57,853 nucleotides of DNA from an uncultured Gammaproteobacteria bacterium (lineage in GTDB: Bacteria; Patescibacteriota; Microgenomatia; Daviesbacterales; UBA10151): NCBI GenBank assembly GCA_964406775.1, contig CAYOSW010000006.1:1-57853 (forward strand), read 5' to 3'. Of this stretch, positions 14,548 to 54,336 are shown piece after piece (within the stretch, counting starts at the first letter, position 1; the number at the start of each line of letters is the position of its first letter). A program made the position numbers and the translations under genes. The notes beneath the pieces were generated by a model. That model saw only the letters and a list, made by a program, of their open reading frames with translations. It made no database searches and had not been told where the DNA came from.

Positions 14548-14630
14548 TGCCGAAGGAGAGACTCGAACTCTCAAGGCCTTGCGACCAATAGTTTTTGAGA
14601 CTATCGCGTATACCATTCCGCCACTTCGGC
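14548..14630 (-). tRNA. tRNA-Leu (CAA), CCA not encoded
   Basis: GCCGAAG acceptor, GGAATGGTATAC D arm, ATAGT-CTCAAAA-ACTAT anticodon arm, long variable arm, GTTCGAGTC T loop; TG-g-TATAAT promoter at 14645-14650. Confidence 0.97.
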
Positions 14631-37334: not shown

Positions 37335-38938
37335 CTATTTACAAACGCGAATCGTCTGGCCAATTTGAAGAACCGAAACCCCGGGATTTAAACTAACCAG
37401 CTCCCCAAACCTGCTCCCCCTGCCTAGCTCCTTCTCCGCAATCCTCCAAAATGAATCCCCTTCCTGTACAACATAAGAGCAACTCTCCGGAGTCTTAGAA
37501 ACCCCCGCAACCGCTTGCCCCGAAGACTTAGAAGTAATCAAGGACGGATTAGAACTAAACGGATTTAAATTAGCAAAAAACTGCGTAATATTAGCCTCTC
37601 TTCCTTTAGTTTTAATAGACTTCACACTGCTCCAACCCCCGGCATTACAACCATTAACCGCCTGAACTTTAAAGTAGTACGTCGTATTAGGCGAAAGGCC
37701 GGAAACAGTCCTTCCTATAGTCCAAAGGTTACCGGAATATCCAAACAAATCCCCATATTGATTTGCATTAGAATCCAGTCCATAACTTACGTTATATCCT
37801 GAACTTCCGCTGACTGTTGAAAAATACAAATTTGCATAAGTTCCTGCCGTATCAATTTTAAAAAGGTCCGGCACCCCGGCGGGAGTGGAAGCATTACAAT
37901 TCGGAGGATCAGTTGTAGACGGAGGATGGTAAACGGGTTGGGATGGAGGATATGGATTAGAGCCTAAATACGCCCTACCGTCGCAGACAACTGCAACCAG
38001 CACCTGACCATCTCTGGAAATAGCACCTCCATTCCAAGTTTGATCCGTATCACCCAAAGGCTGAGTCTCAGTCCAGGTGCCCCCTGTGTCTGTTGATATA
38101 TAAAGCCTTAGGCTGTTTGAAACAAACATAGTTCTTCCGTCTGAGGAAATGGACGCGATACTCCAAGTTGCATCATTATCTCCTGCAGGCTGAAGCTCTT
38201 CCCAGGTATCTCCACCGGTTAGTGACCGGTAAAGCCTGCCGTTAAGAGCGCCTGCCAAAACTGTCTGGCCGGTAAGCCCAAGCGAATTCCATTGAACATC
38301 AATATCTCCTGCAGGCCTGACCTCAGCCCAATTATCCCCACCATCAGTTGATCTATATAATCTGGAACTATCTATTCCTGCAAACATTGTCTGTCCATCG
38401 GAAGACACAATACTAGTCCTCCATTCCTGGTTGGTATTTCCAACCGGCCGTACTTCTGCCCAATCACTACCGGCATTAATCGATCTGTACAATCTACCAT
38501 TATTAACACCCGCCAAAAGAATTTGGCCATCAGAAGACATACTTGTGGTATACCACCTCAGATCACTATCCCCTCCCGGCCGGGTCTCAGTCCAACTATC
38601 TCCACCGTTAGTTGTTATATAAAGCCTATTATTTAGTACGCCGGCTAATATAATTTGACCGTTTGAAGACATACTTACGGGAAGCCAATTCCAATCAAAA
38701 TCACCGTCAGGCTGAGTTTCTGCCCAAGTATCCCCGCCATCTTCTGACAAGTAGAGACCTCCGTTTTGGGAACCAACAATTATTATCTGGCCGTCTGAGG
38801 ACATAGCTACCGGAGTCCAGGGATTATCGGTATTTCCGGCCGGTTGTTTTCGAACCAAGTTACGGCAGCCTGAACAGAAGTAGTAAAAAAGATTGAGATT
38901 AATATAAAGGCTAAGGAGAGTAAAACAATTTTCCTCAC
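37335..38938 (-). pseudogene. Secreted 7-bladed BNR/Asp-box beta-propeller + FN3 + LysM protein; frameshift near 38850 separates the signal peptide
   Basis: GTG 38938 (TATACT-6-GTG) reads MRKIVLLSLAFILISIFFTTSVQAAVTWFE; the repeat frame continues KQPAGNTDNPW. Adding one A to the A4 run restores WFEKQP. Seven S.DGG.TW-type repeats; YVVQEGDSFWRIA LysM. Confidence 0.85.
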
Positions 38939-39098
38939 AATTTCAGTATATAAAACGGCCTTCAGGTAATACAACAGTATCAAACCGGAACGTATTCCAT
39001 TCGCACAGAATTTAAACAAATATAAGGTTAAATTCTAAGGTTGGGACTGCCTAGTATTATTTTGGAGATACAGGACATAAAAGGTATAATTAAAATTT

Positions 39099-41324
39099 AT
39101 GAAGCAAATTATTGCCGCCGTGCTAATAATTGTCGCTATCATAAGCCTGATTGTTATCGCCTTTACAGTTAACCAAGTCAGTTATGAGCAGCAAAGACTT
39201 CAATCCGATCTTCAATACCGTTCTACCCTTCTGGCTGACAGTTTAAAAGAAACGATTGAGCCTAACTTCATCAATAAATCCGATGACTATCTTCAAAGTG
39301 TTGTTGAACGGTTTACAAGTAAGGAGCGATTTGCAGGGCTAGGTATTTATGATAATAAAAACCAGATAATAGCTCTCTCTTCAACCCTTCCCGAATCGAC
39401 GTCTGCAGCTTCTGAAATAGTAGCTAATGCAATGGATGAAGATAAGCCAAGTGGAGATTTCGCCTCACTAGATAATAAAAAAATTTATCTCCTTGCAGTT
39501 CCTTTACATAATAACAAAAGTGTTGTCGGGGCTATGCTTATTGCCCAAAATGCAAATTACATTGATGACCGACTGTTTGAAATTTGGCGAAATAATCTGA
39601 TCCGTCTTTTGATCCAGGCATCACTTTTATCTTTGGCTACGATATTACTAATCAGGTGGATTATTTATGAGCCTATTAAAGGACTTGTAGATAACATCAA
39701 GTTAGCCCGTATGGGTCAAGCCGGTAAAAATCCTAAAAATCTAGCCGGATCATTTTTCTTCCGTCCGTTGATTAAAGAAATTTCCAATATGCGCGATAGT
39801 CTTATGGAAGCAAGGGGGTCTGCCAGCGAGGAAGCCAGGTTGAGACTCGAGAAACTAGATTCTCCTTGGACCTCGCAAAGATTGAAGGAATTTATTAAAG
39901 ATATCTTAAAAGGCAGGCAAATATTTATGGTCTCCAACCGAGAGCCATATATTCATACAAAGAACGGGGGTAAAATTACTTACTATTTTCCCGCCAGTGG
40001 AATGGCAACTGCGATCGAGCCTGTTATGCAGGCCTGCGGCGGTACTTGGATAGCTCACGGTAGCGGAGATGCTGATAAATTAGTCGTTGATAAGAATGAC
40101 CGGATAAGCGTTCCGCCTGATGAGCCTAAATATACTTTAAAACGGGTCTGGCTTACACCGGAGGAAGAAAATGGTTATTATTACGGATTCTCCAATGAAG
40201 GTTTATGGCCGTTATGCCACATAGCCCACAACAGGCCGATCTTTAAAAAAGAGGATTGGGTTGAGTATCAAAGAGTAAACCGCAAATTTGCCGAGGCTGT
40301 ATTAGCTGAAACAAAAAATCAGGACAGGCCAATTGTTTTGATTCAGGATTTCCATCTTAGCTTAGTTCCGAGGATGGTTAAGGAGAAAAAACCCGGCGCA
40401 GTTGTTGGAATATTTTGGCATATCCCCTGGCCTAATCCCGAATCATTCAGCATTTGCCCCTGGAAAAAAGAGATTTTAGACGGAATTCTCGGTGCTGACC
40501 TCATAGGGTTCCATACTCAACTCCACTGTAATAATTTTATAGAAACAGTAGGCCGCGAATTAGAATCCTTGATTGATTTTGAACGATTTACCATAACCCG
40601 TAACAATCATAGCTCTTATATCAAGCCCTTCCCTATTAGTATTTCCTTCCCAAACGGCAATAAAAACTCTCCTGAACCTAATGAGAAAGCCGATCTGATG
40701 AAGGATTTGGGTATTAAAAGCAAATATATCGGCTTAGGTGTTGAGCGGCTTGATTATACGAAAGGAATTTTAGAACGTTTTAAATCAATTGAGATATTCT
40801 TAACAAAATATCCAACCTACCGCGAAAACTTCACCTTCGTCCAGATTGCTGCGCCTAGCCGAACTAAAGTTAAAAAATACCGTGATTTTGCGGTTGAAGT
40901 CAGGGATGAGGCAAAGAGAATTAATCAATTATTTGAAACTGATAAATGGAAACCAATCTTACTTCTGGAAAAACATCACAATCATGAAGAAATCCAGAAG
41001 TTCTTCAGGTCAGCCGATTTCTGTATGGTTTCGTCACTCCACGATGGAATGAATTTAGTAGCTAAGGAATTTGCTGCCGCCCGGGATGATGAAAAAGGGG
41101 TTCTAATTTTAAGCCAATTCACTGGTGCCTCAAGAGACCTAAAAAGCGCTTTAATTGTCAACCCTTATAACGGTGAACAATCGGCTGATGCCATTAAAGA
41201 AGCTCTAGAGATGCCGCTTAGAGAGCAAACTAAAAGGATGCACGAGATGAGAGAAAATATTAAAAACTACAATGTATATAGGTGGTCTGCCGAACTTCTT
41301 AAAACAATAGTTGGTTTGGGTTAG
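39099..41324 (+). CDS. otsA: Trehalose-6-phosphate synthase (GT20) fused to an N-terminal TM-periplasmic sensor-TM-HAMP-like module
   Basis: [49 protein letters not shown]; first ~250 aa have two TMs flanking a ~140-aa loop. Confidence 0.9.
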
Positions 41325-41339
41325 TATGAAAGATTCCCT

Positions 41340-42554
41340 ATGACAAATGACCTAAAAAAAACAATAAGTAACTTAATGCTTTCCAACAGAAGACACAAGG
41401 AAAGGTATTTTTACACTGTTCCTTCTCCTGAATCGTACCCATATCAGTGGCTCTGGGATTCCTGTTTTCATTCGATAATTCTTTCCCACTTTGATATGAG
41501 TTCCGCGAAGCGAGAACTTCTATCCTTATTTGTCAGGCAATTTGAAAACGGTATGATCCCGCATATGATTTATTGGCAGAAAAAAACCGCAAGCGATTTT
41601 CCTGTCATCGAGTGGGGCAAGGAAGATACAAGTTCTATCACTCAACCACCTATGCTTGCCTACTCTGTTTGGCAAATTTACCAAAAAGATAAGAGTAAAA
41701 AATTTTTAGATCAACTTTATCCGAATTTAACTAAATTTTACCGATATTTTTTAGAATACCGCGATTTTAGAGGAAACAATCTAATCAGTATTATTAATCC
41801 CGATGAATCAGGTGAGGACAACTCCCCTAGGTTCGATGTTGTTCTTGGACTTCCCCCAAAACACAATTTAAAGGAGAATTTTAAGAAGCGTCTTGAGTTA
41901 ATTCAGAGAAACCGCGAGTGCAAATTTAATGCCCGAACTTGTATGAAAAACTTCTTTTGGGTTAAGGATGTTCCGTTTAACTCTATCTTAGTAGAGAACC
42001 TAAAATGCCTCTCGGATATAGCATCCGCCTTGGGTAAACACGAAGATGCAGATTTATTTTTTGATCAAAGTAAATTAATTTCTGCAGCAATGAGAAAACA
42101 TATGTTAGAGGACGGGGTATTCTGGTCACTTCATTCCAAAATGGATATTGTTGGAGAAAAAATCAACTACAAAAAAATTAAAACAAAAACCTGGGCAATT
42201 TTTGCTCCTCTTTTTGCTAAACTCTATACTAAATCCGAAGCTAATAAGATTATAAAAAAGTATTTACAAAATGAAAAAGAATTTAACGCGCCGTTTTTAG
42301 TCCCGACAGTATCACGCTCGGAAGAATCCTTTAACCCTGACGGTTTTTGGCGGGGGCCCGTTTGGATGGCAACAAACTGGTTTATCTATAAAGGATTACA
42401 AAAGTACGGATATGAAACATTGGCCGAAAAAATTAAGCGGTCAAGTCTTAATCTAGTAATAAAAAGCGGTTTTCGGGAACAGTACAATCCTTTAACCGGA
42501 GAGGGATACGGGGCAAAAAATTTTACTTGGGGTGGTTTGGTAATTGATATGTAG
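41340..42554 (+). CDS. GH63-like (alpha/alpha)6 glycoside hydrolase (MGH1 / trehalase-like)
   Basis: YPYQWLWDS, GMIPH, ITQPP, ESGEDNSPRFD, FWRGPVW, FREQYNP..G.G. Confidence 0.85.
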   Translation: MTNDLKKTISNLMLSNRRHKERYFYTVPSPESYPYQWLWDSCFHSIILSHFDMSSAKRELLSLFVRQFENGMIPHMIYWQKKTASDFPVIEWGKEDTSSITQPPMLAYSVWQIYQKDKSKKFLDQLYPNLTKFYRYFLEYRDFRGNNLISIINPDESGEDNSPRFDVVLGLPPKHNLKENFKKRLELIQRNRECKFNARTCMKNFFWVKDVPFNSILVENLKCLSDIASALGKHEDADLFFDQSKLISAAMRKHMLEDGVFWSLHSKMDIVGEKINYKKIKTKTWAIFAPLFAKLYTKSEANKIIKKYLQNEKEFNAPFLVPTVSRSEESFNPDGFWRGPVWMATNWFIYKGLQKYGYETLAEKIKRSSLNLVIKSGFREQYNPLTGEGYGAKNFTWGGLVIDM

Positions 42555-42558
42555 AATT

Positions 42559-43389
42559 ATGCTTAATTTTTGGGGAAATAAAGAAAATTTAGAAGGTCTT
42601 CTTAAAAAAAATAAAACAACTCTTTTGTTTCTGGATTTTGATGGCACTTTAGCGCCGTTTGCACCCATACCGACAAGTGCCAGTCTGCCGAGAAAAACGG
42701 GATTAGTGTTAGAAAAGCTGGTAAAAATCAGGTCATTATCAATTATCATAATTAGCGGCAGAACCCTGAACGACTTAAAAGACAAAATTAATCTAACCGG
42801 ACTTAATTATTCTGGAAGCCACGGGTCGGAATGGGTTATCAACAAAGAAAGTTTTAGTGCAGAAATATCATCAGAAACAACCCAAATTCTTCAAGATATC
42901 AAGCGGGATATGGAATTAATCTGTACTGAGTTTGAAGGTGCTTTAGTTGAAAGGAAAATTTTTTCTGTTGTAGCCCATTATAGACGAGTTAGACAAGACA
43001 GAAAAAAAGACTTAAAGTGGGCGTTGCAAAATACAATGGCAAAATATTTGGATACCGGTCTTGTTTCTTTAATTTGGGATAAAGAGGCATATGAATTACG
43101 CACAGAAACCGGCTGGACAAAAGGTGTGCTTGCTAAGAAATTACTACCAAACGGGGAGGAATGTATTTTTATAGGAGATAGCGAAACCGACGAGGAAGCT
43201 TTTAGACAACTGCCTGATTCTCTAACCATCAGAGTCGGCTTTTCAGAAAACTCTTCGGCAAAATACTTTTTAAGGGATGTTCAGGATGTCCATAAATTTT
43301 TAATCTGGCTACTGAGCGCCTATCAGTCAAAAAAACTTTTAAAAGGATCCGGCAGCAATAATAATCAGAAATATCCCAATAGTATTTAG
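42559..43389 (+). CDS. otsB: Trehalose-6-phosphate phosphatase (HAD IIB)
   Basis: LFLDFDGTLAP, ISGR, GSHG.E, KG, IGDSETDEEAF. Confidence 0.9.
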   Translation: MLNFWGNKENLEGLLKKNKTTLLFLDFDGTLAPFAPIPTSASLPRKTGLVLEKLVKIRSLSIIIISGRTLNDLKDKINLTGLNYSGSHGSEWVINKESFSAEISSETTQILQDIKRDMELICTEFEGALVERKIFSVVAHYRRVRQDRKKDLKWALQNTMAKYLDTGLVSLIWDKEAYELRTETGWTKGVLAKKLLPNGEECIFIGDSETDEEAFRQLPDSLTIRVGFSENSSAKYFLRDVQDVHKFLIWLLSAYQSKKLLKGSGSNNNQKYPNSI

Positions 43390-43914
43390 AAGGAAGGTCA
43401 AGCTTAAAAACTGCCAATTTTTCAATTTTGAAGCTCCTAATAGACCTATGCCAACTTCATCCGGAAATGGTGAAGCAATAATAAATGCCCCAAATAAAGG
43501 CAAAAACCAGGCAAAATAGGGAGTCTTAAATAACTTGACCAAAACACTCCCTCCGTTACTTAAGAATAACGGTTTAAGCTCATCGAAGACTCTGTCCCGT
43601 AAAAACCTAAATATTAAGTAATCTCCTATAACTGCTCCCGCACCTGCGCATATTGCAACTAATAATGGGTTTAAAGTTTCTGCCAAAAAGAAGAGAACTA
43701 CTGCCGCCGGAGCAACCGTAAAAATGGAAACAAACAGGATACCAGAAATAAATGCTCCAATATAACCAAAACCATTTATCAAAGAAATTGTATTTTTAAC
43801 AATGGGATGTTCTGCAAACCAAAAGAAAAGAGCCAAACTTAAAATTAGCAGTGCTGTGTTTTTGTAATTCCAATGCCTCCACTTCTTAGTAATTTGTTTA
43901 GCCAACTCATCCAT
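43339..43914 (-). CDS. DedA/VTT-like membrane protein
   Basis: FTVAPA, GAVIGDYLIFRF, IIASPFPDE. Confidence 0.7.
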   Translation of the reverse strand: MDELAKQITKKWRHWNYKNTALLILSLALFFWFAEHPIVKNTISLINGFGYIGAFISGILFVSIFTVAPAAVVLFFLAETLNPLLVAICAGAGAVIGDYLIFRFLRDRVFDELKPLFLSNGGSVLVKLFKTPYFAWFLPLFGAFIIASPFPDEVGIGLLGASKLKNWQFLSLTFLLNTIGIFLIIIAAGSF

Positions 43915-44034: not shown

Positions 44035-45516
44035 ATGCTTAACCGAAAATATTTAGTCATACTTTTTCTAATCGGGATTGTTTTAATTTCTTCACTTTTT
44101 TGGAGATTTGTAAACTACGGTGAGCGTTGGACTTTAAGCCAGGATCAGGCAAGAGACGGAATAATCGGGCTTTACTCAATAAGTCACGGAGTTTTGCCCC
44201 TGGTCGGACCACCTTCTTCAGCCGGACTATTTTCTTTCGGACCCTTCTATTACTGGCTGATTATTTTGTTTACATTAATAATCCCGGCAGTTAACGGACC
44301 TTGGGTCGGTTTTACTCTTCTTTCCGTCTCGACCGCCTTAATCTTTTTTTATCTCGGATACTTAAACGGCGGAAAATCATCCGGATTTATTTACGGAATA
44401 CTGGCCGCTTTTTCAAGCGGTTTGATTTTCCATTCCCCGGATATGCTAAATCCGGTTCCGGTTTCATTTTTGACTTCCCTGTCATTTTTGTTTATCTATT
44501 TACTGAGCAGAAAAAAGAAAATCATTTATGCTTTCTGGACGGGACTAATTTTAGGAATTGCCGTTAATTTCCACTATCAGGCTCTGGGGCTTCTTATTTT
44601 AATTCCGCTTGTTTCAATAACTAATAACTCCGATTACCTCAAAAAGTTATATGTTTTTATTTTAAGTATTCTCGGGCTTCTGGCTTCGTTTTTACCTCTG
44701 ATTTATTTTAACTTTACTCACCAGAGTGTTTTATTTAATAACTTTCTTCAGTTTTTAATGAATGGCCCGGACGGCGCGGGAAACAGCAGTAATTTAATGA
44801 GCGATTTGTTTATTTTTTGGCCTCAATTTTGGGGAGAAACTTTAATTAATATTCCCTTTTCTGGATACTTGTTTTTATTACTTTTCCTTACAGCTTTGTT
44901 TTTGAGAATTGGAAACAATAAAAGTTTTGATAAGCCGTTTTACACAATTTCATCAGCTGCTTTATTTCAAGTAATCTTCCTATTTACATATAGCGGAGTA
45001 AGGCTTCCTGTGTATTTAATTGTTTTTCAACCGTTTTTAATTTTTCTTACCGGCTGGTCTGTATCGGTTTTATTTAAAACAAATAAATATCTAGGTTTAG
45101 GAATTTTAATCCTCATAATTCTTGTTTCTATTCCCGGAAATTGGCAGATTGTAAATAACAATAAAAGCCAGGTGGCGGATATACTCTCTATGAAAAATTC
45201 ACTCGATTCAAAAATAACCGGACCAGTACGGATCTACAGCGATGAAAAATCCAGTATGGTCGCCCTCCCTCTTTATTATTTATATCTCAAGGAAAACCGC
45301 ATTTCGGATTCCGGACAGGAAATAGTAACCTGCGAAAACCGGATAATTTACGGAGGAGATGCATCGGAGTCGAGATGGAGCTGTCCTGAAAATATTCCGG
45401 TCATTACTGAACTAAAAAACTTTAAAATTTACAGGAAAAACGAAATTGGTCTGATTTCGGAAAAAGAGGTTACTGAGGAAAATATATATGCCTGGTTGTA
45501 TAGCTCTTACAAATAG
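44035..45516 (+). CDS. GT-C membrane glycosyltransferase (PMT/ArnT-like, GT39-type)
   Basis: DQARD, LVGPP, GPFYYW, multiple TMs. Confidence 0.8.
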   Translation: MLNRKYLVILFLIGIVLISSLFWRFVNYGERWTLSQDQARDGIIGLYSISHGVLPLVGPPSSAGLFSFGPFYYWLIILFTLIIPAVNGPWVGFTLLSVSTALIFFYLGYLNGGKSSGFIYGILAAFSSGLIFHSPDMLNPVPVSFLTSLSFLFIYLLSRKKKIIYAFWTGLILGIAVNFHYQALGLLILIPLVSITNNSDYLKKLYVFILSILGLLASFLPLIYFNFTHQSVLFNNFLQFLMNGPDGAGNSSNLMSDLFIFWPQFWGETLINIPFSGYLFLLLFLTALFLRIGNNKSFDKPFYTISSAALFQVIFLFTYSGVRLPVYLIVFQPFLIFLTGWSVSVLFKTNKYLGLGILILIILVSIPGNWQIVNNNKSQVADILSMKNSLDSKITGPVRIYSDEKSSMVALPLYYLYLKENRISDSGQEIVTCENRIIYGGDASESRWSCPENIPVITELKNFKIYRKNEIGLISEKEVTEENIYAWLYSSYK

Positions 45517-45518
45517 AC

Positions 45519-47009
45519 TTAATTTTTTATCGGAGCTGCGGAATGATCCATCATCATCCCGCCCATACCTTCTCGGGCAGGTAGTCCATTATGCGGGGTT
45601 GTCGAGGCACCGGGCTTAACTACTTCGACAACCTGCATCATACCGTGATCTTCGTGAAATAAAATATGACAATGGAGAACATATTTTCCGTCAAAGTCGG
45701 TGTATTTAGTGCGGATAATAACCGTACTCATAGCCGGAACGGGAAAGGTATCATCATAGCCTTTCCTGTCGACATCGATTCCATTGACGGAAATAACCTG
45801 AAAAGGATTAATGTGAATATGGAAAGGGTGCGTTTCTTTACTTTTATTAACTAGATGCCACTCTTCGGTTGAACCGAGCTCCATAACCTGACTGATAACA
45901 TTAGGGTTAAATTGCTTTCCGTCTAGCAGAAATGTCGTATTTTGAGGAGTTCCTCCTTCGGAGAAAGTTAGCGTTCTTATATTATCAATTTTAGCGTTGC
46001 GGAAGTCATCATAAGGTCTGAGCACTGTCGGGAGCGGTCTTGGCAAAACCGGTATTCCCGCAACCTTTATCTTCATAAAAGTATCCTCGGGGAAAGTGAA
46101 AAATCCCGTGTCATAAACCAATGACTTAACATCAAACTCTCCACTCCATCCGGCTTTAAATAAAATCTGAACCCGATCCCCAGGAGCCATTAATTCGGAG
46201 TCCACATCATCAACTTCGGACATCATATTTCCGTCCCGTGAGATGACGTGGAGCTTTGTTCCAGGAATCGCCAGGTTATAAAAATCATCGGATGCCGCAT
46301 TAAAGATTTCCAGTCTGACGGTCTCAAACGGACGGATATACAATACTGGATTTGACTTATTATTAACCAGTCTGACCACGGCGTCTGAGGTTGTCGGGTC
46401 ATTAGTGGTTAAAACCAGTTGCCTCTCCTCTAAACCTTTTAAAGCGGGTAATTCGTCTGTATCGCCCCGTACAATAATTGCCCCGGCCATACCTCCGTTT
46501 ACCTGATCATCGGTATAGGTGTGCATATGCGGGTGATACCAATAAAGTCCTGGAGGGGGATTTTCAGGCAGATTATATTCATAATCGAAAGATTCTCCTG
46601 GATTTACAGCAAGAAGAACATTATCTGAATTGCCTTTAGGAGAAACGTGCGAGCCGTGGAAGTGAAGATTTGTCGGCTGATCTAAATCGTTTCTCAGATG
46701 CACCTTAATCGTATCCCCGCCTTTAACAACCCAGGTATCTCCTAAATATTGACCGTTATAAACCATAGACCCTGTTGCCTCATTACCTCCGATACTGACC
46801 GGAGACTTTTTAGCATTCAAGGTAACATCCAATATCCCGTTTTTGCTTACTAATTTCTCGGGCTCAATCCACGAAGGATTGGGTTTTAAGAAACGGCTTA
46901 ACAATAATACGATAATGATTGCAGCGAATGCGATAAAAAAAGAGTTTCTATGAAAAAATACTAACCCTGATTTGTTTGAAGCTTTGTGTGAAGATTTTTT
47001 CTTGGGCAT
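45519..47009 (-). CDS. Three-domain multicopper oxidase with N-terminal membrane anchor
   Basis: TNLHFHG, YWYHPH, HPFHIH, HCHILFHEDHGM (all Cu ligands, axial Met). Confidence 0.93.
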   Translation of the reverse strand: MPKKKSSHKASNKSGLVFFHRNSFFIAFAAIIIVLLLSRFLKPNPSWIEPEKLVSKNGILDVTLNAKKSPVSIGGNEATGSMVYNGQYLGDTWVVKGGDTIKVHLRNDLDQPTNLHFHGSHVSPKGNSDNVLLAVNPGESFDYEYNLPENPPPGLYWYHPHMHTYTDDQVNGGMAGAIIVRGDTDELPALKGLEERQLVLTTNDPTTSDAVVRLVNNKSNPVLYIRPFETVRLEIFNAASDDFYNLAIPGTKLHVISRDGNMMSEVDDVDSELMAPGDRVQILFKAGWSGEFDVKSLVYDTGFFTFPEDTFMKIKVAGIPVLPRPLPTVLRPYDDFRNAKIDNIRTLTFSEGGTPQNTTFLLDGKQFNPNVISQVMELGSTEEWHLVNKSKETHPFHIHINPFQVISVNGIDVDRKGYDDTFPVPAMSTVIIRTKYTDFDGKYVLHCHILFHEDHGMMQVVEVVKPGASTTPHNGLPAREGMGGMMMDHSAAPIKN

Positions 47010-51873: not shown

Positions 51874-54336
51874 CTAACCGAGTTTTTGTTCCTGTTCGTG
51901 GACTTTGATTATGGTTTTAATTACCGTATCGGGATTGAGAGACATACTGTCTATCCCCGCCCGGACTAGGAATTGGGCGAAATCGGGATAATCGGAAGGC
52001 GCCTGTCCGCAAATACCGATATATTTATTCCGCTTTTTGCAGACTTTAATAACCTCGCTGATCAACTCTTTTACGGATTTATCGTTCTCGTTGGCAATCG
52101 ATCTGATCCTCTCATTGCCGTCGCGGTCTATACCGAGCGTTAGCTGGGTTAAATCATTGGAACCTATACTCATTCCGTCAAAGATATCCAGGAATTCATC
52201 AGCCAAAATAACGTTTGAGGGAATCTCACACATTACATAAAACTTGAGACTTTTATCTTTTTTCCTGGACAATCCGTTCTTCTCCATTATTTCGATGACT
52301 TTTCTGCCTTCTTCCGCCGTCCGGCAAAACGGCACCATCACCATACAATTTAAAAGCCCGAATTCTTCCCTTACTTTTCTCAAGGCCCTTATTTCCAGCT
52401 TAAATGCCTCGATAAATTCCGGAGAATAATATCTTGATGCACCTCTCCAGCCGATCATCGGATTTTCCTCTTTCGGCTCGTATAAATCCCCTCCCAAAAG
52501 CGAACGGTATTCATTAGTTTTAAAATCCGAAAGTCTCACCAAAACCTGGTGCGGTGCAAATGCTGCGCATATTTTAGCTACACCTGAGGCGAGTTTATCA
52601 ACATAAAACTGCAATTTATCATCATAGCCTTCCGTCTCTTTATCAATTTTTTCCTTTAAATCTAAGGGGAGTTTCCCGTAATTAATTAAAGCGTTAGGGT
52701 GAATTCCGATATCGGAAGCGATAATGAATTCTTCCCGAGCCAGTCCGACTCCTGAATTGGGTAGAAAAGATTTTTCAAAAGCCGTGTCTGGAGTTGCAAT
52801 ATTGACCATTATTTTTGTTTTGGTTTCAGGAAGTTTTTTAATATCGATTTCGTCAATTTTAAATTTTAATTCCCCCTCAAAAACTATTCCGGCCGAACCT
52901 GTGGTATCGACAGTAATTATATCCCCCGTTTTAATTTTTTTGGTGGCATCGTCGGCCCCGACAATACAGGGAATCCCCAGTTCACGGGAAACAATTGCCG
53001 CGTGTGAGGTTCTTCCCCCTTTATCGGTAACGATACCCGAGGCAATCTTCATAACGGGTTCCCAATTCGGATCGGTAATTTCGGTAACAAGTATTTCGCC
53101 CTTTTCAAATTTATTAATATCCTTAACGTCCAGTATCACCCGTGCTTTACCCGCTGCAATTTTATTTCCGACAGAGGAACCCTTAACAATCTCCTTACCC
53201 TCCTGAGTCCTGACATATTCGTGAATTTTTGTTAAATCCCTTTCGGCGTGAATTGTTTCGGGTCTGGCCTGAACGATAAACAACTCCCCTGTTTCGCCGT
53301 CTTTTGCCCACTCCATATCCATCGGCGTCCATTTTCCCGCTTTCGCTGTGTAGTGCTTTTCTATTTCTACAGCCCAGGAAGCGAGTTTCAAAATTTCTTT
53401 GTCCGTTAATACAAAGTTCTTAAATTCCTTTCCTGTGGTTTCAATAATTTTAGTGGGTGTATCCTTTCCGTAAATCATTTTCCTGTTTTTACGTCCCAAA
53501 GTTTTACTGATAATAGGCGCATAGATTTTTCTGTTCAGAAGATGTTTTATCGGGTGCTGTTTAACAGTTTGCCCTAAAGTCGGCTTATAAATTACAAATT
53601 CGTCCGGGGTAACAGCTCCCTGAACAACCATCTCACCCAAACCCCACGATCCGTTGATGATTACAACATCCTTGAATCCCGACTCCGTATCCAACGAAAA
53701 CATAATCCCGGAGCAGGCCAAATCCGAACGGACCATTTTTTGAACCCCGACCGATAAAGCCACCTTAAAATGATCAAATCCCTTATCTACGCGGTATGAG
53801 ATTGCCCTATCATTAAATAGAGAAGCCATCGCTTTTTTAATGGCAATAAGTGTGTTCTCCAGACCCCTCACGTTCAGATATGTTTCGTGTTCACCGGCAA
53901 AAGAAGCCCCGGGGAGGTCTTCAGCAGTTGCAGAAGAGCGGACTGCAAAATCGGCATTTTTCCCATATTCCCCCTCCGCCTCCTTATGGGCTTTTTCAAT
54001 AGCTTGTTTTAAGTCTTCGGGAAACCCGGTTGCGACAATTTTTTCCCTAATTTTTTTACCCTTTTCTTCTAAATCCTGAATATTTTTGGTATTTAAATTC
54101 TTAAGTGTTTCTTTGATGAAGATATCCAAACCGCTTTCTTTTAAGAAATGGCGGTAAGCTGTGGCCGTGACTACATATCCTCCCGGAACGGGAATTCCTT
54201 TTTTCTTAGTTAATTCCCTGATCATCTCGCCTAAAGACGCATTTTTTCCTCCGACTTCAGGCACGTCTTTAATTGAAACTTCGGAAAGTTTCTTTATGAA
54301 CATAGATTGCCTGTTTACCCCATTAAAACCGTTCAT
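51874..54336 (-). CDS. ppsA: Phosphoenolpyruvate synthase
   Basis: VGGKNASLGEM, VRSSATAEDLP.ASFAG, IVQARPET, GGRTSHAAIVSRE, GSNDLTQL. Confidence 0.97.
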   Translation of the reverse strand: MNGFNGVNRQSMFIKKLSEVSIKDVPEVGGKNASLGEMIRELTKKKGIPVPGGYVVTATAYRHFLKESGLDIFIKETLKNLNTKNIQDLEEKGKKIREKIVATGFPEDLKQAIEKAHKEAEGEYGKNADFAVRSSATAEDLPGASFAGEHETYLNVRGLENTLIAIKKAMASLFNDRAISYRVDKGFDHFKVALSVGVQKMVRSDLACSGIMFSLDTESGFKDVVIINGSWGLGEMVVQGAVTPDEFVIYKPTLGQTVKQHPIKHLLNRKIYAPIISKTLGRKNRKMIYGKDTPTKIIETTGKEFKNFVLTDKEILKLASWAVEIEKHYTAKAGKWTPMDMEWAKDGETGELFIVQARPETIHAERDLTKIHEYVRTQEGKEIVKGSSVGNKIAAGKARVILDVKDINKFEKGEILVTEITDPNWEPVMKIASGIVTDKGGRTSHAAIVSRELGIPCIVGADDATKKIKTGDIITVDTTGSAGIVFEGELKFKIDEIDIKKLPETKTKIMVNIATPDTAFEKSFLPNSGVGLAREEFIIASDIGIHPNALINYGKLPLDLKEKIDKETEGYDDKLQFYVDKLASGVAKICAAFAPHQVLVRLSDFKTNEYRSLLGGDLYEPKEENPMIGWRGASRYYSPEFIEAFKLEIRALRKVREEFGLLNCMVMVPFCRTAEEGRKVIEIMEKNGLSRKKDKSLKFYVMCEIPSNVILADEFLDIFDGMSIGSNDLTQLTLGIDRDGNERIRSIANENDKSVKELISEVIKVCKKRNKYIGICGQAPSDYPDFAQFLVRAGIDSMSLNPDTVIKTIIKVHEQEQKLG

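Follow-up and report, generated by a model that had tools for sequence, protein, structure and literature searches.

A WalK-like membrane sensor module joined to trehalose-6-phosphate synthase in Candidatus Daviesbacteria: a predicted receptor enzyme

The DNA analysed here, referred to below as the window, is a stretch of 57,853 nucleotides (nt; contig CAYOSW010000006.1 of assembly GCA_964406775.1) from a member of Candidatus Daviesbacteria, a Microgenomates lineage of the Patescibacteria, or candidate phyla radiation (CPR), an assignment that follows the names of its nearest homologues. It carries a gene in which a membrane sensor module is joined to trehalose-6-phosphate synthase (OtsA), followed by genes for a glycoside hydrolase (GH) and for the trehalose-6-phosphate phosphatase (T6PP) OtsB. 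The three open reading frames (ORFs) lie on the same strand, are tightly packed and form a putative operon at 39099-43389:

39099..41324, + strand: sensor-OtsA fusion gene, 741 amino acids (aa); ORF, Pfam and NCBIfam matches, homologues and a full-length AlphaFold2 model.
41340..42554, + strand: GH63 / MGH1-like glycoside hydrolase, 404 aa; Pfam PF22422, E 2.7e-79.
42544..43389, + strand: trehalose-6-phosphate phosphatase OtsB of the HAD-IIB type, 281 aa from a TTG start or 276 aa from ATG 42559; TIGR00685 and Pfam.

A gap of 15 nt separates the fusion gene from the GH gene, and the GH gene and otsB overlap by 11 nt if the TTG start is used or are separated by 4 nt if translation begins at ATG 42559. 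An earlier note on this DNA had set the limits of the locus at 39085-43389. These limits stand apart from the start of the first gene, which is ATG 39099, since positions 39085-39090 are a TATAAT-like hexamer. The same note had described a GH63-like gene and otsB after the fusion gene, and both are present, the one by its PF22422 match and the other by a TIGR00685 score above the cut-off.

The product of the first gene divides into seven segments, in which TM1 and TM2 denote the two transmembrane segments:

39105..39170, + strand: TM1, aa 3-24; hydropathy, with model helix 2-58 running on into the outside-facing domain.
39171..39593, + strand: extracytoplasmic Cache/PDC-like sensor domain, WalK-like, aa 25-165; AlphaFold2, Foldseek, Pfam matches of relatives and the ratio of nonsynonymous to synonymous substitution rates (dN/dS).
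39594..39665, + strand: TM2, aa 166-189; hydropathy, with model helix 153-204 passing through it.
39666..39812, + strand: HAMP-like domain, aa 190-238, comprising AS1 (190-205), connector (206-218) and AS2 (219-238); model, Foldseek and hhalign.
39813..39866, + strand: signalling helix extending AS2, aa 239-256, with an A238/A242/A246 stripe and the motif EEARLR; conservation.
39867..39914, + strand: W-T-x-x-R-L helix (WT helix), aa 257-272, leading into strand 1 of the GT20 domain; conservation and model helix 259-270.
39921..41306, + strand: trehalose-6-phosphate synthase domain of glycosyltransferase (GT) family 20, aa 275-736; Pfam PF00982, solved relatives and residue alignment.

Hydropathy analysis identified exactly two hydrophobic segments in the fusion protein, at about residues 1-24 and 166-189. 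Because K2 precedes TM1 and an R/K-rich stretch follows TM2, residues 25-165 should lie outside and the remainder of the protein in the cytoplasm. Pfam returned sub-threshold matches alone for the N-terminal 274 aa (LptF_LptG, SMP_2, dCache_3 and sCache_3_2), so that structure prediction and profile comparison were needed. The NCBIfam WalK model matched residues 2-241 with an E-value of 5e-8, and the N-terminus of the DgcN model matched weakly (E 3e-4). When residues 1-274 were used as a query against 1.8 billion representative proteins, 633 relatives were recovered at E<1e-3 and 296 at E<1e-10, numbers that far exceed chance.

We built an AlphaFold2 model of the N-terminal module on an alignment of 35 diverse relatives. 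Its mean predicted local distance difference test score (pLDDT) was 86, with values of 81-96 per 10-residue block in the extracytoplasmic (ecto) domain; the full-length model of the fusion protein had a mean pLDDT of 83.6. Both are monomer models. The chain runs from helix 2-58 through a short helix, two strands, a helix and three strands to helix 153-204, and after TM2 continues with a 14-residue loop (205-218), helix 219-254 and a last helix, 259-270. The modelled ecto fold has the layout of a Cache/PDC domain, with a long helix continuous with TM1, a PAS-like alpha/beta core and a five-stranded sheet, all between two transmembrane segments. In Foldseek comparisons with the PDB, the top match of the module was a full-length WalK model (9a5d_A; E 4e-11, 265 columns, TMq 0.69). 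Crystal structures of the WalK ecto domain (7dud, 4ywz and 5is1) matched at E 1e-6 to 3.5e-6, with TM scores of 0.72-0.77 on the target and a root-mean-square deviation of about 3 Å, and the sensor domains of KinD, Mlp24, Tlp3 and DctB were matched as well. Among the 35 relatives, Pfam found sCache_3_2 in 13 (best 1.3e-5), dCache_1 in 7 (best 8.5e-7) and Cache_WalK in 4, along with SMP_2 in 15 and CHASE8 in 5. The earlier note had asked whether residues 25-165 adopt a Cache fold; the confident model, which matches the WalK ecto crystals, predicts a Cache/PDC fold. Conserved polar residues of the ecto domain across phyla are R41, S48, K/R75, E76 and Y154.

The region after TM2 fits the HAMP layout in the models, with a helix to 204/205, a loop at 205-218 and a helix from 219, and the TM-HAMP region of WalK superposes on the module in the Foldseek alignment. 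With hhalign, a profile of residues 184-250 aligned to the HAMP domains of Escherichia coli Tar, Tap, Tsr and EnvZ with a probability of 84.6% (E 6.8e-6), and P192 and G206 landed on the canonical HAMP proline and glycine. The Pfam HAMP model matched 6 of the 35 relatives at E up to 0.1, weakly (best 0.0035). On the predicted structures we conclude that the N-terminal module has a WalK-like Cache/PDC domain flanked by TM1 and TM2, followed by a HAMP-like domain that is assigned from structure and moderate profile evidence. The earlier note had listed TM1, an extracytoplasmic domain of ~140 aa, TM2, HAMP-like helices, a W-T-x-x-R-L linker and a complete GT20 domain; hydropathy, the model and Pfam found all of them. 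It had also called the arrangement typical of chemoreceptors and kinases, and the anatomy is indeed that of a transmembrane receptor, with the N-terminal region of WalK as the best structural match.

The segments that join the HAMP-like domain to the enzyme were assessed in 71 species-level homologues, taken from a scan of GTDB representative genomes. R204, E227, L235, A238, A242, A246, W257, T258 and L262 are invariant in this set, and R261 is kept in 97%. The mean frequency of the majority residue is 0.73 for residues 239-256, compared with 0.76 for the GT20 domain and 0.52 for the ecto domain, which makes the signalling helix the best-conserved part of the N-terminal module across phyla. 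Between positions 218 and 300 the sole common insertion or deletion (indel) is one residue at position 250. Of 249 full-length homologues, 248 have a spacing of 22 residues between W257 and S279, the latter in the SNREP motif that bears R281. Four residues join the WT helix to GT20 strand 1 (275-279) in the full-length model, and R281 stands at the end of that strand. A conserved, nearly indel-free linker of fixed length is what one would predict if the length and register of a signalling helix are important, and we infer from the model that the coupling region would place the receptor output next to the acceptor site of the synthase. At L250 (window 39846-39848), members from Microgenomates carry one extra signalling-helix residue relative to 88% of the homologues from other phyla.

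The catalytic domain is complete. PF00982 matched residues 276-736 over model positions 4-470 of 473 (E 9.9e-116), and the closest solved relatives are Tps1/OtsA enzymes (E 3e-74). In a MAFFT alignment of the fusion protein with E. coli K-12 OtsA and 31 homologues from CPR and Acidobacteriota, E. coli residues R9, Y76, W85, D130 and H154 correspond to R281, Y361, W370, D417 and H441, and R262, K267, R300, D361 and E369 to R550, K555, R588, D649 and E657; all ten are invariant in the 31 homologues. We take the E. coli residues to be glucose-6-phosphate or UDP-glucose binding and catalytic positions, with Arg9 binding glucose-6-phosphate. The sole difference seen at these sites is S300-G301 in place of E. 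coli G21-G22. By this alignment the GT20 domain is predicted to be catalytically intact. Compared with OtsA/Tps1 of known structure (E. coli 1gz5/1uqu, Candida 5hut, Mycolicibacterium 5jij), the fusion protein has the same full GT-B fold GT20 domain and the same catalytic and substrate residues, and here otsB adjoins the gene; the matched solved bacterial OtsA proteins are soluble, whereas the fusion protein has 270 extra N-terminal residues that form a transmembrane sensor. The statement in the earlier note that OtsA is normally soluble agrees with this, as every solved OtsA matched (455-693 aa) aligns only from residue 271 onward.

With regard to the product, the OtsA equivalog model TIGR02400 scored 421.8 bits, below its cut-off of 564.85. 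OtsA-type models were still the top NCBIfam matches, and GgpS scored lower, at 281 bits. OtsB, which turns the product of OtsA into trehalose, was recognised by TIGR00685 (109.9 bits against a cut-off of 68.05) and by Pfam Trehalose_PPase PF02358 (E 8e-28), and its translation contains the HAD motifs DFDGT and GDSETD. These matches support, indirectly, a GT20 domain that would make trehalose-6-phosphate from NDP-glucose and glucose-6-phosphate, in line with the adjacent T6PP. The missed OtsA cut-off and the GgpS match could also be read as signs of a different product, made from another NDP-sugar or acceptor (glucosylglycerol-phosphate, for example), with the GH acting on that product or on unrelated sugars. 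We regard this as improbable: OtsA is the best-scoring model, every E. coli contact residue for glucose-6-phosphate and UDP-glucose is invariant, and the phosphatase next door passes the T6PP equivalog cut-off.

We then assessed how widely the fusion occurs. The best 120 homologues of the fusion protein are all 713-779 aa long and at least 65% identical, and a search seeded with an acidobacterial member added 120 full-length fusions, 748-836 aa long, that belong to Terriglobia, Blastocatellia and Acidiferrales. Some acidobacterial members bear the automatic JGI name 'trehalose-6-phosphate synthase/HAMP domain-containing protein'; most database labels read trehalose-6-phosphate synthase alone. 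A scan of GTDB representative genomes with the N-terminal alignment extended to residue 300 found that at least 499 species-level genomes encode a relative of the N-terminal module. In the best 80 of these genomes, which supply the locus counts out of 80 given below, the relative is contiguous with GT20 in 80/80 loci, and all 80 loci come from metagenome-assembled genomes. By record titles, the Patescibacteria with the fusion are Levyi-, Davies-, Taylor-, Uhr- and Nomurabacteria; the other lineages are many Acidobacteriota, Elusimicrobia, Omnitrophota, Verrucomicrobiia and Methylomirabilis, and further Nitrospirales, Syntrophus, Ignavibacteriota and Planctomycetales. The fusion spans about ten phyla.

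The genes beside the fusion differ among these lineages. OtsB lies downstream in at least 36/80 loci, a count in which the tblastn threshold misses divergent copies, and a DUF5752 gene with a TreT-like GT1 gene lies downstream in 36-37/80. As the commonest conserved neighbours, OtsB and the TreT-like GT/DUF5752 pair also argue against a GT20 product other than trehalose-6-phosphate. A GT gene of the mannosylglycerate-synthase type is nearby in 4/80 loci and an MscS-like gene in 3/80, and both also flank the fusion in L009. The order sensor-OtsA, OtsB, DUF5752, TreT-like GT1 is found at L008:8334-11073, at L009:3927-11070 and in 36-37 of L010-L089, from Acidobacteriota, Elusimicrobia, Omnitrophota and others; in a few such loci the mannosylglycerate-synthase-type GT and the MscS-like gene lie just upstream, and the whole resembles a compatible-solute island. 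These neighbours fit, circumstantially, a role of the fusion in compatible-solute or stress physiology in other phyla. Within Daviesbacteria the gene order varies, being OtsA-GH-OtsB in the window and in L090 and OtsA-OtsB-GH in L002, and Curtissbacteria have OtsA-OtsB without the GH.

The cassette also serves another enzyme. Protein P0182 (690 aa; L001:3373-5445) carries the TM-Cache-TM-HAMP module on a carboxylate-amine ligase of the GCS2 type (glutamate-cysteine ligase family 2), and it does so without the WT helix. A dedicated search found five CPR clusters of this fusion (P0182 and P0417-P0420), 682-717 aa long and 72-100% identical. The many relatives of these proteins are soluble, 440-480 aa long, and come from CPR and DPANN archaea. 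The presence of the same cassette on a GCS2 enzyme marks it as a portable unit, and the lack of the WT helix there indicates that this helix is specific to the GT20 fusion. In P0135 (913 aa, from a Logan contig), a sensor-OtsA protein with a Pfam HAMP match at E 1e-3, the ecto domain is duplicated in tandem before TM2-HAMP-GT20.

Selection on the fusion gene was estimated from one pair, the fusion gene and its nearest relative with DNA (L090), at a dS of about 0.9; remoter relatives were saturated at synonymous sites. The dN/dS was 0.038 for the ecto domain, 0.058 for TM2 and HAMP, 0.025 for the signalling and WT helices, and 0.037 for GT20. The ecto domain and the enzyme are thus under equal constraint, which speaks against a simple anchor, and the strong constraint on the coupling region and on the outside-facing domain together is more than an anchor would need. 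We therefore favour, as the probable though far from certain reading, a sensor module that regulates OtsA catalysis, that is, a receptor-type trehalose-6-phosphate synthase predicted from sequence comparison and structural models. It is the best reading because the linker is conserved like the catalytic domain, the dN/dS of the ecto domain equals that of the enzyme, the fusion is widespread and the cassette is portable. The earlier note had inferred a one-component osmolyte switch in which an external signal gates trehalose synthesis directly; receptor anatomy and sequence constraint support this in part, as a candidate switch whose osmotic role is conjectural.

Several observations weigh against this reading. 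The Cache models were sub-threshold on the fusion protein itself (sCache_3_2, E 0.11; dCache_3, E 0.08), and Pfam HAMP did not match it even at E up to 10. The hhalign alignment puts the invariant E227 one heptad downstream of the canonical HAMP glutamate, so that the two are not equated. Our sequence and structure analysis identified no ligand site or signal for the ecto domain. Ecto domains of the WalK type can act through partner proteins instead of small ligands, so that 'external signal' may be too narrow a term.

The sub-threshold family models and the ecto domain with no ligand site identified are also what one would expect if the N-terminal module were a membrane anchor or dimerisation scaffold only, one that brings OtsA close to, for example, a transporter, channel or glycolipid pathway and leaves catalysis unregulated; membrane placement could suffice if trehalose were exported or used for envelope glycolipids. 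We consider this rather unlikely. An anchor needs neither a folded outside domain of 140 aa at a dN/dS of 0.038 nor a HAMP-like bundle, and it needs no invariant signalling helix of fixed length, conserved like the active-site domain across about ten phyla. Moreover, the cassette is that of signalling proteins such as WalK and has been transferred whole to another enzyme.

If the sensor module does regulate OtsA, it is about as likely to respond to an external ligand as to a physical or envelope cue. The second of these, a sub-case of regulated catalysis in which the module responds to turgor, membrane tension, ionic strength, envelope integrity or a partner protein, is taken by itself a possibility short of probable. 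WalK, the closest structural relative, is an envelope-homeostasis sensor; the operons in Acidobacteriota hold MscS-like and compatible-solute genes; and TM2, HAMP and the signalling helix (majority-residue frequency 0.59-0.73) are better conserved than the ecto domain (0.52). Set against a purely physical cue, purifying selection on the ecto domain remains strong, and its polar residues are conserved across phyla, as expected if it binds something.

The second gene of the operon encodes a hydrolase whose closest solved relatives are Thermus TTHA0978 (E 9e-54) and Mycolicibacterium hassiacum glucosylglycerate hydrolase MhGgH (E 1e-28). We compared its subsites with those of MhGgH by phmmer alignments and with 50 CPR homologues; the roles of the MhGgH residues are those reported in PMC6608630. 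The hydrolase belongs, like TTHA0978 and MhGgH, to the PF22422 family and shares with them the catalytic Asp/Glu pair (D160 and E380, aligned with MhGgH Asp182 and Glu419) and the -1 sugar subsite (Y33, W37, W39, D40, H75, G158, W337 and W342). D160 and the -1 subsite residues are invariant in the 50 CPR homologues, and E380 is present in 49. It differs from them in the residues that contact glycerate: MhGgH Tyr88 is replaced by D86, at a position that is variable among homologues; Trp177 by D155, which is invariant in the 50 CPR homologues; and Tyr222 and Tyr375 by F181 and F336. The cap insertion with Arg216 has no counterpart in the alignment, which is of low confidence there. The GgH equivalog model NF047898 scored 173.5 against a cut-off of 550. 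Because the glycerate-binding residues are altered, the aglycone is probably not glycerate. An assignment as a glucosylglycerate or mannosylglycerate hydrolase was judged unlikely in view of the altered +1 subsite.

That the characterised GH relatives hydrolyse glucosyl- or mannosylglycerate lends something to the idea of another GT20 product; the loss of the glycerate-binding Tyr88, Tyr375 and Trp177 and of the Arg216-bearing cap speaks against it. The substitution of Asp (D155) for the conserved Trp, invariant within the clade, suggests a distinct substrate specificity of the CPR enzymes. A neutral sugar such as trehalose is a plausible substrate, and trehalose itself is the most economical guess, though no more than a guess.

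A GH63-like gene is near the fusion in 1/80 of the best fusion loci. Seen from the side of the hydrolase, in a sample of 80 close GH relatives from metagenomes, a sensor-OtsA gene was within 5 kb in 9 of the 29 loci with at least 3 kb on both sides, and sensor-OtsA or OtsB was near the GH in 19/80 overall. This linkage between GH and sensor-OtsA is far above chance for a genome of about 1000 genes. The co-encoded hydrolase of the earlier note therefore holds for some CPR lineages and not in general. In several of five unlinked GH loci that were scanned, a hexokinase-like gene (Hexokinase_2), a GT4 gene or both lie beside the GH, and a hexokinase-like neighbour fits a glucose-releasing enzyme. 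CPR homologues of the GH that lie away from otsA often have a hexokinase-like gene and a convergent GT4 gene as neighbours, as at L092:3998-4960, L096:3615-4562, L092:6206-7276, L100:6205-7263 and L113:6188-7225.

Parts of this arrangement are familiar from other proteins. The N-terminal region of the WalK (YycG) kinase has the same TM1, single Cache/PDC ecto domain, TM2 and HAMP; the output of WalK is a PAS-DHp-CA kinase, whereas here it is a glycosyltransferase with no phosphorelay, and the identity is 16-17%. The diguanylate cyclase DgcN/YfiN likewise unites a periplasmic sensor, TM2, HAMP, a helical linker and a catalytic domain in one polypeptide, and mycobacterial Rv3645, a HAMP adenylyl cyclase, is another HAMP-coupled receptor enzyme. 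Their outputs make second messengers, whereas that of the fusion is a metabolic enzyme directly making a compatible solute or storage sugar. Post-translational control of a prokaryotic trehalose synthase has its nearest functional precedent in the TPSP-GT-MSC complex of Thermoproteus tenax, where the trehalose-6-phosphate synthase is encoded in one operon with a GT and a mechanosensitive channel (PMC3634074). That operon resembles the TreT-like GT and MscS-like neighbours of the fusion in Acidobacteriota, but its activator is a separate soluble GT and its synthase is fused to the phosphatase, with no membrane sensor or HAMP (PMC3634074).

Under the favoured reading, of a sensor module that regulates OtsA, the fusion protein would function as a dimer in the membrane, as other HAMP receptors do. 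TM2, HAMP and the signalling helix would relay a change that arises outside the cell, in the membrane or in the envelope, and this would shift the N-terminal lobe or acceptor site of the synthase, or its oligomeric state. Synthesis of trehalose-6-phosphate could then be switched without transcription. In the Daviesbacteria lineage, the presumably co-transcribed GH63-like hydrolase may serve turnover by releasing glucose from a neutral alpha-glucoside, of which trehalose is the most plausible.

The DNA around the operon was scanned for regulatory features, and one site with weak evidence lies before the first gene:

39063..39090, + strand: promoter-like site TGGAGA-16-TATAAT; 10/12 match, 8 nt before the start codon.

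Promoter-like sites in the region number 12, compared with 14.1 in shuffled sequences, so that this site is not statistically distinctive, and promoter and terminator scans of the region showed no enrichment over shuffles. No Rfam match to a riboswitch or leader RNA was found upstream of the operon, in 38700-39200; the sole Rfam match in the window is a tRNA at 14548-14630 (- strand). Upstream, the divergent gene at 37335-38858 (- strand) encodes a protein of 507 aa with Sortilin/BNR repeats, an FN3-like domain and a C-terminal LysM domain, which is probably secreted or cell-wall-bound. Downstream, a 191-aa polytopic membrane protein with no Pfam match is encoded at 43339-43914 (- strand), in a convergent overlap of 51 nt with the 3' end of otsB, and a second, of 493 aa and likewise without a Pfam match, at 44035-45516 (+ strand). 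A three-domain multicopper oxidase with an N-terminal membrane anchor (45519-47009, - strand) is notable for a small-genome CPR bacterium. Further on, 51874-54336 (- strand) holds a gene of the pyruvate phosphate dikinase / phosphoenolpyruvate synthase type, 820 aa.

Full-text literature searches turned up neither an OtsA linked to HAMP or Cache nor a case in which GT20 or any other glycosyltransferase is the output of a HAMP domain. What would be new is a HAMP receptor enzyme of a known kind with a new, metabolic output. More broadly, Cache-HAMP receptor glycosyltransferases may be widespread, unrecognised one-polypeptide switches that act on the enzyme itself to turn production of a protective sugar on or off, with no need of second messengers or transcription, a proposal to which we give an equal chance of being right or wrong. 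That a GCS2 ligase carries this cassette too hints at a wider principle, in which receptors gate metabolic enzymes in bacteria with small genomes.

The rapid build-up of trehalose under drying, osmotic or envelope stress is usually credited to transcription and to ion effects on soluble enzymes. A receptor wired into OtsA would offer another, quicker route to trehalose. The fusion is present in Acidobacteriota, Patescibacteria, Elusimicrobia, Omnitrophota and other lineages, which dominate soil and aquifer communities and are difficult subjects for genetics. A glycosyltransferase would join the short list of HAMP outputs, and a single polypeptide with an easy product assay is suited to asking how HAMP signals reach a catalytic domain that is not helical. 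The portable cassette could also serve to build ligand-controlled sugar synthesis.

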